24,087 nucleotides of DNA, from positions 1-24,087 of the forward strand of contig JAGLQD010000216.1 of NCBI GenBank assembly GCA_023136985.1, read 5' to 3'. Below the pieces are notes generated by a model. That model did no database searches, was not told the DNA's origin, and worked only from the letters and a program-made list of their open reading frames with translations. Below are positions 2,419 to 5,697 of the stretch, in pieces. The position numbers and the translations under genes are program-made. The stretch is from Candidatus Sabulitectum sp. (GTDB lineage: Bacteria > Fermentibacterota > Fermentibacteria > Fermentibacterales > JCC-6). How positions within the stretch are numbered: the stretch's first letter is position 1; the number at the start of each line of letters is the position of its first letter.

Positions 2419-3120
2419 ATGGACCTCAACATTATTTACAGCAGACTGTTCGCTTTTTTTGGACCCAGGGGCTGGTGGCCGGGAGAGTCATCCTATGAGC
2501 ATTTCATTGGCTGCATTCTTGCTCAGAACACCAGATGGGATCGGGTTGTTCCTGTTATTGAGAAGATGAAGCAGAGGGATGTTCTTTCTCCTGAAAAATA
2601 TCTTCAACTGGATTCAGATGATCTGGCAGAAATCTTGAAGGGCTCAGGCACCTACAGAATAAAGGCAGAGTATCTTCAAATTGCAGGCAGCTATATGCTT
2701 TCACTGGGCTGGGACGGCACTCCGGAATCGGTAACAATGGAAACAGAATTACTGAGAGGTCAGCTTCTTAGGCTTAAGGGAATAGGCCCGGAAACATGTG
2801 ACTGCATTCTTCTGTATGTGCTTGAAAGACCGGTTTTTGTTGTGGATGCTTACACCAGAAGAATTCTTAGCAGACATGGATTGTGCGGTACGAAAACAAA
2901 ATACATGGAAATACAGGAGTTGTTTCATGGTGTACTCTCTCCGGATGTGGAGATGTTCAAAGAGTATCATGCTCTTCTTGTTGAATGTGCAAAACGATTC
3001 TGTAAATCGAAACCCTTGTGTACTGATTGTCCTCTGTTTGAAGGAAATGGAGAAGTAGAGATAGAGCACCTGTTCACAGCTGAGGGTTTGAGGCTCCAGT
3101 TCGTTTATGTGCCAGAGTAA
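2419..3120 (+). CDS. Endonuclease III-related HhH-GPD DNA glycosylase; C-terminus replaced by cupin-derived sequence
   Basis: GWWPGES, ILAQNTRW, HhH motif LLRLKGIGPETCDCILLY, VVDAYTRR, and a partial Fe-S loop CKSKPLCTDCP. Confidence 0.88.
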   Translation: MDLNIIYSRLFAFFGPRGWWPGESSYEHFIGCILAQNTRWDRVVPVIEKMKQRDVLSPEKYLQLDSDDLAEILKGSGTYRIKAEYLQIAGSYMLSLGWDGTPESVTMETELLRGQLLRLKGIGPETCDCILLYVLERPVFVVDAYTRRILSRHGLCGTKTKYMEIQELFHGVLSPDVEMFKEYHALLVECAKRFCKSKPLCTDCPLFEGNGEVEIEHLFTAEGLRLQFVYVPE

Positions 3121-3506
3121 GACTAGTGCTCTGTATGCCTTAATATTTCGGTATAATGCGCCGCTATCCTGAGTTACAGCAAGGCACTGGTTTATGCGCA
3201 TAGCACCGCTATGAAATTGAACCAGTAACGCTGCTGGGGCTCTGGAGAGCCAGCAGGATTCGAAAGTTTAGGGTATACAGAGTACTTGCCCCCGGTTGTT
3301 CCATCGGATTGCATCAGCACATTGATGAGGATGAGTTGTATTTCATTATTGAGGGCTCAGGAAAAGTATCAGACGGAGAGGAAACTCATGCCGTTATGTC
3401 CGGGCACTCTATTCTTACAAGAAGCGGAGAGTCCCACTCCATAGAGAATACCGGTTCCATGGATCTTATTCTTATTGCAGTCATACCGCAAGCTCACACT
3501 CAGTAG
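3043..3506 (+). pseudogene. Disrupted cupin (RmlC-like) gene: N-terminus lost, 1-nt deletion at 3087-3089, 162-bp insertion at 3125-3286
   Basis: Adding one T and removing 3125-3286 gives GNGEVEIEHLFTAEGFEAPVRLCARVRLAPGCSIGLHQHIDEDELYFIIEGSG...GESHSIENTG, which contains both cupin motifs. Confidence 0.8.
3125..3286. mobile_element. 162-bp MITE-like insertion with 19-bp imperfect terminal inverted repeats
   Basis: AGTGCTCTGTATGCCTTAA (3125-3143) is complementary to TTAGGGTATACAGAGTACT (3268-3286) with 3 G:T positions. Flanked by CTAG/CTTG. Interrupts the cupin frame exactly. No coding capacity. Confidence 0.7.
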
Positions 3507-3535: not shown

Positions 3536-3627
3536 GGAGGGGTGCCAGAGCGGTTGAATGGGGCGGTCTCGAAAACCGTTGTCCTCTTTTTGGGGGACCG
3601 TGGGTTCGAATCCCACCTCCTCCGCCA
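3536..3627 (+). tRNA. tRNA-Ser (anticodon CGA), CCA encoded
   Basis: Acceptor stem GGAGGGG/CTCCTCC, anticodon arm GCGGT-CT-CGA-AA-ACCGT, long variable arm GTCCTC/GGGGAC, T-loop GGTTCGAATCC, discriminator G followed by CCA. Confidence 0.97.
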
Positions 3628-4251: not shown

Positions 4252-5697
4252 TTGAGATCAGCCTCGTATCCATTCTGTCTTGTTCTACTGGGAGCATGCG
4301 CAGCTGTTTTTGCCCAGCCCCCTGATATTCTGTGGACTAATAGCTACGGTGGGAGCACTAACGATTATTGCCGGTCGGTACTTCAGACTGATGACGGTGG
4401 TTTTTATCTAATTGGGATGAGTGGATGGGATCTGTCACTGCTTAAGGTTGATGAGAACGGGCTGCTTGAATGGGAGAAGACATTTGGCGGTTCAGGATAT
4501 GATTTCGGAGAAGATGCACAGAGAACCTTGGATGGAGGGCTGATCATTACCGGCTGGACCCATTCGTTCGGGGCAGCAGATGGCGACCTCTGGCTGCTTA
4601 AGCTGGACTCTTTGGGAGGTCAGGAGTGGAGTTCGATCTTCGGGTGTGATTCAGTGGATAGGGGATTTTCCGTTTGTCAGAGTCCAGACGGAGGATTTGC
4701 AGCAACAGGTGTGACCACCGGTTCGGCTGGAGACCCGGAGCTCTATATCGTTAAAGTTAATGAATACGGTTCACTGGAGTGGGAGCAGAGTTACGGAGGA
4801 ACAGACAGCGATATTGGTTTCTCGATAGAACCCACGACAGATGACGGATTCATCATCACAGGATCCACATACATGGAAGAAACTGACGCTGACCTCTGGT
4901 TGATCAAGACCGACAGTTTTGGAGAGATAGTGTGGGAAGAGACATTCGGTGACTCCCTTGAGGAAGTGGGCTATTCAGTAAGTCAGACCAGCGATGGCGG
5001 TTTCATTGTTACAGGGTATACTCTTTCTTATGCCACGGGGGCTGATATTTTTCTGTTGAAAACAGATAATATGGGCTCAGTTGACTGGACTTCCTCATTC
5101 GGTGATTCTGACTGGGACAGAGGGGACGATGTCATCCAGACCATCGACGGAGGGTTTGTCCTCACCGGATCCACCACATTACCAGGTGCAAGCATTGATA
5201 TCTCGGTGGTAAAAACCTTCTCCGACGGTGGTCTTGACTGGCAGATGACCGTTGGCGATGCCGACCATGACGAATACGGGTATTCGATTTTGCAGCTTCC
5301 CGATGGAGGGTTCATTATAGGAGGAGATTCCAGGTCATTCTCTACAGGTGATCACAACATGTTCCTTGCCAGGCTTGCACCTCCTGAAGGCATAGCAGAT
5401 GATGACGATCCGGAATCCAATGATCTGTTCCTGCACTCCATAGCACCAAACCCCTCTTTTCAAACTGTGGAGATCTCATTCTTTCTCCCTGTCTCCGCGC
5501 ATACTGACATTTCTGTTCTTGATCTATCAGGCAGAGTTATTTCCTGCATTCAGCAGGGTGTGATGCCTGCAGGTGAGAACTGTACAGACTGGAATGGCTG
5601 CAGCCAATCAGGTTTTCCTGTTTCCGGCGGAGTCTACCTGATCCGTATTGAATCCATGGGGCAGATCGTTACTGGAAGGCTGGTTGTTTTCAGGTAG
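4252..5697 (+). CDS. Secreted beta-propeller-like repeat protein with T9SS type A/FlgD-Ig-like C-terminal domain
   Basis: GGAGGT SD then TTG. Signal peptide ..AAVFA. About 7 repeats of ~50 aa (W..t(F/Y)GGs..D.g.sv.QT.DGGfi..G....d..llK.D..G). CTD APNP...ISVLDLSGRVI...GVYLIRI...RLVVFR. Confidence 0.88.
   Translation: MRSASYPFCLVLLGACAAVFAQPPDILWTNSYGGSTNDYCRSVLQTDDGGFYLIGMSGWDLSLLKVDENGLLEWEKTFGGSGYDFGEDAQRTLDGGLIITGWTHSFGAADGDLWLLKLDSLGGQEWSSIFGCDSVDRGFSVCQSPDGGFAATGVTTGSAGDPELYIVKVNEYGSLEWEQSYGGTDSDIGFSIEPTTDDGFIITGSTYMEETDADLWLIKTDSFGEIVWEETFGDSLEEVGYSVSQTSDGGFIVTGYTLSYATGADIFLLKTDNMGSVDWTSSFGDSDWDRGDDVIQTIDGGFVLTGSTTLPGASIDISVVKTFSDGGLDWQMTVGDADHDEYGYSILQLPDGGFIIGGDSRSFSTGDHNMFLARLAPPEGIADDDDPESNDLFLHSIAPNPSFQTVEISFFLPVSAHTDISVLDLSGRVISCIQQGVMPAGENCTDWNGCSQSGFPVSGGVYLIRIESMGQIVTGRLVVFR

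Follow-up and report, generated by a model that had tools for sequence, protein, structure and literature searches.

Stowaway MITEs of plants, which go with the Tc1-mariner transposons, duplicate TA on insertion, are cross-mobilized by mariner-type transposases, and form several subfamilies. In Streptococcus pneumoniae, the RUP element of the RUP/IS630-Spn1 pair is a small non-coding MITE of 107 bp, with ends like those of an IS630-family IS of the same genomes; it inserts at TA, is present in many copies and folds into stem-loops, was reported from intergenic positions or from inside IS elements, and was named as the sole bacterial repeat with ends then matched to an IS (PMC2229807). The Correia (NEMIS) elements of Neisseria are 100-160 bp long, possess repeats of about 24-26 nt and a terminal TA, and show length variants, end subtypes, and rod-like transcripts (PMC2229807). 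IS630 of Shigella sonnei duplicates TA within CTAG (PMC2577343, table 1, citing Tenzen & Ohtsubo 1991). The element described here, which interrupts a Cupin_2 gene in an uncultured genus of the Fermentibacterota, is, like RUP, small and non-coding, with IS630-like ends, insertion at TA, many copies, and a stem-loop fold. It also shares with Correia/NEMIS the size range, the repeat length, the terminal TA, the length variants, the end subtypes, and the rod, which in our case is a predicted fold, and with IS630 the TA duplication within a CTAG preference. Unlike RUP, it is 160 bp long, or about 206 bp with an extra module, it falls into three subfamilies that differ in their subterminal repeats and agree in their centre, and it has no sequence similarity to RUP. 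It is likewise unrelated to Correia/NEMIS in sequence and host and differs from them in that its partner IS was found, while it differs from IS630 in that it possesses no transposase.

The stretch that we analyzed (the window) is 24,087 nt long and corresponds to contig C131 of G000, a Candidatus Sabulitectum MAG of 3.09 Mb in 657 contigs with a completeness of 79%. We conclude, with a probability of about 0.9, that positions 3126-3285 of the window are a MITE that descends from an IS630-family insertion sequence, that a transposase of this family (Tc1/mariner-type DDE) presumably mobilizes in trans, and that was inserted in a Cupin_2 gene. The 160-bp element lies on the plus strand, belongs to subfamily A of the repeat family, and is predicted to fold into a long rod. 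No coding capacity was found in it, as the overlapping ORFs are chance ORFs of only 31-42 aa. The left terminal inverted repeat (GTGCTCTGTATGCCTTAATATTTCG) occupies 3126-3150 on the plus strand and the right one (reverse complement, GTACTCTGTATACCCTAAACTTTCG) 3261-3285 on the minus strand, and terminal repeats are kept in the 41 complete copies of the family. A repeat search delimited the arms as 26-nt imperfect inverted repeats (3125-3150 and 3261-3286, 81% complementary); the preliminary description of this locus, made from the sequence alone, had counted 19-bp inverted repeats with 16 of 19 matches, which is correct in that register. Its flanks, CTAG on the left and CTTG on the right, are also those of the sequence. 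The left copy of the TA target duplication is located at 3124-3125, and the right copy, at 3286-3287, reads TT. A TATAAT at 3151-3156 was not called as a sigma-70 site in a promoter scan.

The insert splits a single reading frame. On its left the cupin frame is GFEAPVRLCARVRL (...CARVRL) and on its right it continues with APGCSIGLHQH. When 162 nt are taken out (3125-3286, or the TA together with the 160-bp element), the sequence becomes AGA CTN GCC CCC GGT and encodes R-L-A-P-G, exactly as had been claimed. The uninterrupted form of the gene is present in the relatives: six same-genus genomes share one gene order, namely a repeat protein, a 213-aa glycosylase, a cupin of about 117 aa, and tRNA-Ser, and in all six the cupin is intact and ungapped at the insertion point (...FEAPVRLCARVKLAPGCSIGLHQH..., ARVKL|APGCS). 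An intact orthologue (from G004) was aligned with PDB 1O4T (TM1287) at E=6.5e-22, again ungapped over the junction, and the alignment reproduced the Thermotoga TM1287 sequence that the preliminary description had given. Thus, none of these orthologues carries the insert in frame, and the cupin match spans the junction. The syntenic downstream neighbour in the six relatives is, in the window, tRNA-Ser(CGA) at 3536-3627 on the plus strand, at which the depth of metagenome contigs is very high because this tRNA is common to other organisms. The neighbourhood of the locus also contains two large repeat-rich ORFs, a BNR/Ycf48-like one upstream (1522-2418) and, downstream, one of 481 aa (4252-5697) that has repeats of the DGGF type and a sorting-like tail at its C terminus.

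The cupin gene carries three lesions, namely the MITE in codon 45, a 65-nt deletion, and a 1-nt loss, which we read from a nucleotide alignment after the element had been removed, MAFFT alignment across the insert having been misleading before. The 5' fragment of the pseudogene (about codons 15-45) occupies 3037-3123 and the 3' fragment (codons 46-117 and the stop; Pfam Cupin_2, 8e-13) 3288-3506, both on the plus strand; the latter possesses the GLHQH...E metal motif and is 67-86% identical to the orthologues. The junction of the 65-nt deletion was placed at 3034-3045 on the plus strand by nucleotide alignment with the six same-genus loci and by protein comparison. Compared with the orthologues, this deletion removed the stop of the glycosylase together with the ribosome site, the start, and codons 1-15 of the cupin, and it ends within a microhomology (CCTCTsTGAAGG / CCTGTTTGAAGG). 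Through it, the glycosylase frame continues into the cupin remnant, so that GNGEVEIEHLF is read as the tail of a 233-aa ORF at 2419-3120 on the plus strand. This ORF encodes an HhH-GPD protein (endonuclease III/3-methyladenine glycosylase-like; Pfam HhH-GPD, 1.5e-17) and resembles NCBIfam PRK13913 at 2.9e-25, which is below the cut-off. From ~3037 onward, its final ~28 codons come from the cupin gene and then run out of frame until a TAA is reached; the glycosylase orthologues are 213 aa long and have their own stop behind an end of the form ...CTDCPL(R/C/K)EG.... The third lesion lies in the GAY-GAR (Asp-Glu) codons at about 3083-3086, where the window reads GCTGA-GGGTTTGAGG and the orthologues read YCTGAYGARTTTSARG. 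One T had previously been suggested to be missing at 3087-3089; a nucleotide is indeed lost, but not at that place, where the orthologues also have TTT.

An insert of 162 nt is divisible by three, and its RNA is predicted to fold very stably (-82 kcal/mol, z -9.6), so one could imagine that it is removed in an intron-like or intein-like manner at the RNA or protein level and that the cupin is still functional. However, the cupin frame meets a TAA eight codons into the element, the same gene has also suffered the N-terminal 65-nt deletion and the frameshift, and most other copies of the element are intergenic. No Rfam family was found within 3123-3288 at E<=10. In addition, the terminal repeats, the TA duplication, and the matching IS jointly explain the element fully, and we give removal of this kind hardly any credence. 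The cupin is a pseudogene, and removal of the element would not restore the gene. With its two further lesions, the locus is an ordinary instance of a well-documented process, in which a gene decays through a MITE.

The boundaries of the element and the length of the duplication were determined from pairs of filled and empty sites. In the cleanest pair, L045 versus contig C644 of G000, the empty site is TTTACC-TA-CTTCTT and the filled site is TTTACC-TA-[GTGC...GTAC]-TA-CTTCTT; a second pair, L057 versus C232, also has the 2-bp TA duplication. The duplication is therefore one of 2 bp (TA), and the element spans GTRC to GYAC. At 122 distinct ends, the flanking base was A at position -1 in 96%, T at -2 in 83%, and C at -3 in 76%, and positions beyond -3 were unbiased; this flank logo defines C-TA-G as the preferred target. 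The preliminary description had left the choice between a duplication of 4-bp CTAG, as in the IS5 and IS701 families, and one of TA, as in IS630. In favor of an IS5/IS701-type element that duplicates CTAG (YTAR), CTAG is found on both sides of most copies. However, TA alone is duplicated between C644 and L045 (ACC-TA-CTT to ACC-TA-[element]-TA-CTT), the G of the apparent CTAG is the first base of the element itself, and the matching autonomous element is a member of the IS630 family, not of IS5. A 4-bp duplication is thus effectively excluded, and the IS630-type TA duplication is the part of that choice that stood.

The duplication of the window copy itself is imperfect, with TA on the left and TT on the right, and a flank of this kind was found at only 3 of the 122 ends. 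The same MITE insertion is found in a strain of run X5, which is about 95% identical and belongs to an independent study; position 3287 is C there rather than T, so that the right copy reads TC. The empty sites of the same-genus orthologues are CTTG in five of six and CTCT in the sixth, never CTAG. The mismatch that had been ascribed to one mutation in the duplication is therefore real, and the relatives offer two accounts of it: either the Leu codon of the ancestor was the synonymous CTA and the A of the right copy was changed later, or a non-canonical site was used and the left copy was changed.

This stretch is present in sequencing runs of cold-seep and marine-sediment metagenomes, whose Logan contigs we used to examine the junctions. 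The left junction is bridged by contigs of X1, possibly the sample of origin, and of X3 and the right one by contigs of X1 and X2, with 0 differences; each bridges one junction or the other, and none spans the whole insert. The X5 contig (another study, about 95% identity) has the same right junction. In a MAG as fragmented as this one (657 contigs), and with an assembly-breaking repeat as the element, a repeat misplaced between two contig halves might be suspected. Against such an assembly artefact, the flanks make up the two parts of a single gene, correctly ordered and oriented and in the proper frame, and the junctions are carried by the independent contigs of X1, X2, and X3 and by X5; the probability of an artefact is in our view negligible. 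None of the Logan contigs, which drop rare variants, joins across the element, and none represents an empty allele. The upstream contig of X5 stops matching exactly at the deletion junction, 3045, and the X5 strain appears to be without the 65-nt deletion. This divergence hints, though weakly, that the insertion preceded the 65-nt deletion; any order of the three lesions is tentative.

As a multi-copy repeat, the insert is far beyond chance. The BLASTn search for copy number that the preliminary description had proposed gave about 15 copies in this MAG, of which 4 are full-length and 90-91% identical and ~11 are variant or partial. Matches were also obtained in 10 of 18 other same-genus genomes, with no more than 22-23 matches per genome, and the element is thus present in 11 of the 19 genomes of the genus, this MAG included. 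In 22 genomes from other genera, no element match was obtained. Among 185,579 species genomes, an exact 32-nt core pattern occurred in 46 stretches, and all of the named matches were MAGs of Ca. Sabulitectum or Fermentibacteraceae. Of the complete copies, 41 are distinct; 25 of these measure 160 bp exactly, and about a dozen measure 194-210 bp through an extra module of ~46 nt. The three subfamilies were designated A, B, and C.

The ~46-nt module (...ACYTGACCCTAACAGAGGGCGTCCCGAGCGGTAGCAC...) is found in about a third of the complete copies, inside which it has two alternative positions and both orientations. It is carried by L007, L010, and L011 (G000 contigs C494, C55, and C452) and further by L080, L085, L097, L100, L105, L114, and L118. 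A similar motif (GTGCGTCCCTGGCGTAAGCACGGAGAGCC) forms tandem repeats just outside an IS on C399 and also occurs in C309. At G011:C18:15252-15577, L076:70-353, and G000 C645:1-80, elements adjoin one another in a head-to-tail or head-to-head arrangement with one common TA, as would be expected of new copies that take the TA beside an older copy as their target.

The preliminary description had correctly stated that no transposase is present in the window; the genus does, however, possess the partner IS, the tips of which are found where contigs of this MAG end. Four contig ends break off 17-23 nt into an IS terminus, three of them (C561, C619, and C645) with TA-GTACACTGTACAGCTTAACC... and one (C391) with the other IS end, TA-GTACACTGTACACTCT. 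A same-genus genome, G009, extended the terminus by 36 nt. We scanned metagenome contigs with a stretch seeded by this contig-end terminus and obtained seven records, six with the terminus and a seventh that is apparently a chance match. Four of the six reach into the IS, and two end within its first 50 nt. L125 and L131 contain the whole IS, and L127 and L128 contain its left end and ORF1. In L131, the IS is 1,221 bp long and TA-flanked in a CTAG context. ORF1 encodes a 153-aa protein with HTH_32, and ORF2 encodes a 246-aa protein with DDE_3 (Pfam, 3e-28) that scores 148 bits against a cut-off of 100 with the NCBIfam IS630 family transposase equivalog NF033545; this DDE_3 transposase is what the partner IS has in common with the IS630/Tc1-mariner superfamily. 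In contrast to IS630, the transposase of the partner is in two frames, which meet at CTAAAAAAAATGAAC with an A8 run between ORF1 and ORF2. To judge from the sequence, a frame shift at the A8 run would give ...TLKK(K)NELKPHL.... Transposase frames joined by such a shift are typical of the IS630 family.

Because L125 and G009:C113 have the same flank (the same site), the partner IS lives in this genus. G004 possesses a truncated copy that is 90% identical, and G018 possesses a relative that is 57% identical and has ends (GTACMCCGTCA...) like those of subfamily B. The interior of the IS was not found in the bin of this MAG, in which only the 17-23-nt tips at contig ends are present; bins built from short reads commonly lack the interior of an IS that is present in many copies. 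When the terminal motif was sought loosely throughout the MAG, 447 matches were obtained, mostly random, and paired termini 0.3-4 kb apart were solo ends or neighbouring MITEs without a transposase. The only assembled IS630-family gene of the MAG is not the partner, as it is 27% identical and has the ends GTGTCTAGTTGTAG. This second IS630-family IS is split over two contigs, C270 (1-~250) and C399 (3566-4665), has TA-flanked ends (GTGTCTAGTTGTAG / GTGCCTACTTGCAT), and is seated in an apparent IS1634/IS4-like transposase gene.

The ends of the MITE and of the partner IS were then compared. Subfamily-C ends match the IS at 18 of 18 and 23 of 25 terminal nt. The right repeat of the window copy matches the left end of the IS at 20 of 25 positions and its left repeat matches the right end of the IS at 17 of 25 over the repeat; the left-end likeness runs on to about nt 45 (TTTCGGTATAATGCGCC... 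versus TTTCGGATATAG[G/A]CGC...). No interior homology between the MITE core and the IS loci was detected by blastn. On the strength of these ends, the most suitable reading of the element is that it arose from this IS lineage by internal deletion or rebuilding, and an IS630-family transposase would mobilize it. Since the repeats of the window copy are only 68-80% identical to the IS, the actual mobilizer may be an unsampled relative. The preliminary description had interpreted the insert as a non-autonomous MITE, possibly of an uncatalogued family. Its first part is borne out by the multi-copy family, the terminal inverted repeats, the TA duplication, and the matching IS; at the family level the second part is not, because the ends match those of an IS630-family IS (NF033545, DDE_3).

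The distribution of variation within the element is the reverse of the usual MITE pattern, in which the centre is variable; the interior of Stowaway, a eukaryotic element, is usually variable as well, whereas that of the present element is conserved. In an alignment (A1) of 28 copies of the 160-bp form (159-162 bp), identity between subfamilies was 54% in the subterminal repeats (columns 10-25 and 138-153), 87% in the core, and 93% in the central 54 columns (54-107). RNAalifold gave a full-length rod of 55 pairs, 16 of which show compensatory changes, some of them outside the terminal repeats. The predicted fold of the plus strand is more stable than that of the other strand (-56.5 kcal/mol, z -4.5), and this asymmetry was found in 42 of 42 copies, with a mean of 18.5 kcal/mol, because most of the arm mismatches are G-U on the plus strand. 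G-U was counted in 212 cells at 30 positions versus A-C in 88 cells at 16 positions, symmetric loop positions being taken in to reduce ascertainment.

These features could mean that selection acts on the element primarily as a structured RNA or a regulatory module, which travels on IS630-type ends and has its functional part in the centre. The high conservation of the centre relative to the subterminal repeats, the compensatory changes outside the terminal repeats, and the consistently better fold of the plus strand with its excess of G-U over A-C all point in that direction. However, the copies are related and the counts are not independent, so that the structural evidence is suggestive only; compensatory changes at the ends are expected because both ends must bind the same transposase; and the copies show no bias of orientation relative to neighbouring genes (13 versus 16) and no Rfam match. 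We therefore regard this alternative as unlikely, although clearly less remote than the others considered above. Equally doubtful, in our estimate, is the more specific proposal that a conserved structured RNA or host-factor site (the centre of ~55 nt) has repeatedly taken on ends from various IS630 relatives, with selection maintaining it in the genus Sabulitectum. If this were true, the 160-bp element would be more than junk.

Under the preferred reading, that of an IS630-type MITE in a decaying gene, the history of the locus is as follows. The MITE was inserted by cut-and-paste at a C-TA-G-like site in codon 45 of the 117-codon Cupin_2 gene, a short way 5' of the metal-binding HxH motif. 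This event duplicated the target dinucleotide and brought a stop into frame after eight codons. A loss of 65 nt fused the cupin remnant to the upstream DNA-glycosylase ORF, and 1 nt was also lost.

The locus is a clean case of a bacterial MITE inside a gene for which we identified the parent IS as well as the empty sites of the orthologues, and its host phylum, the Fermentibacterota, is a candidate phylum known only from metagenomes. It opens no new mechanism, and its wider interest is limited to the inverted pattern of conservation, with the centre kept and the subterminal repeats variable, and to the strand-biased wobble pairs. Its practical value lies mostly in annotation, since the cupin is to be annotated as a pseudogene and the 233-aa "glycosylase" as an ORF with a chimeric tail. 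The MITE and the IS also explain part of the fragmentation of Sabulitectum MAGs.
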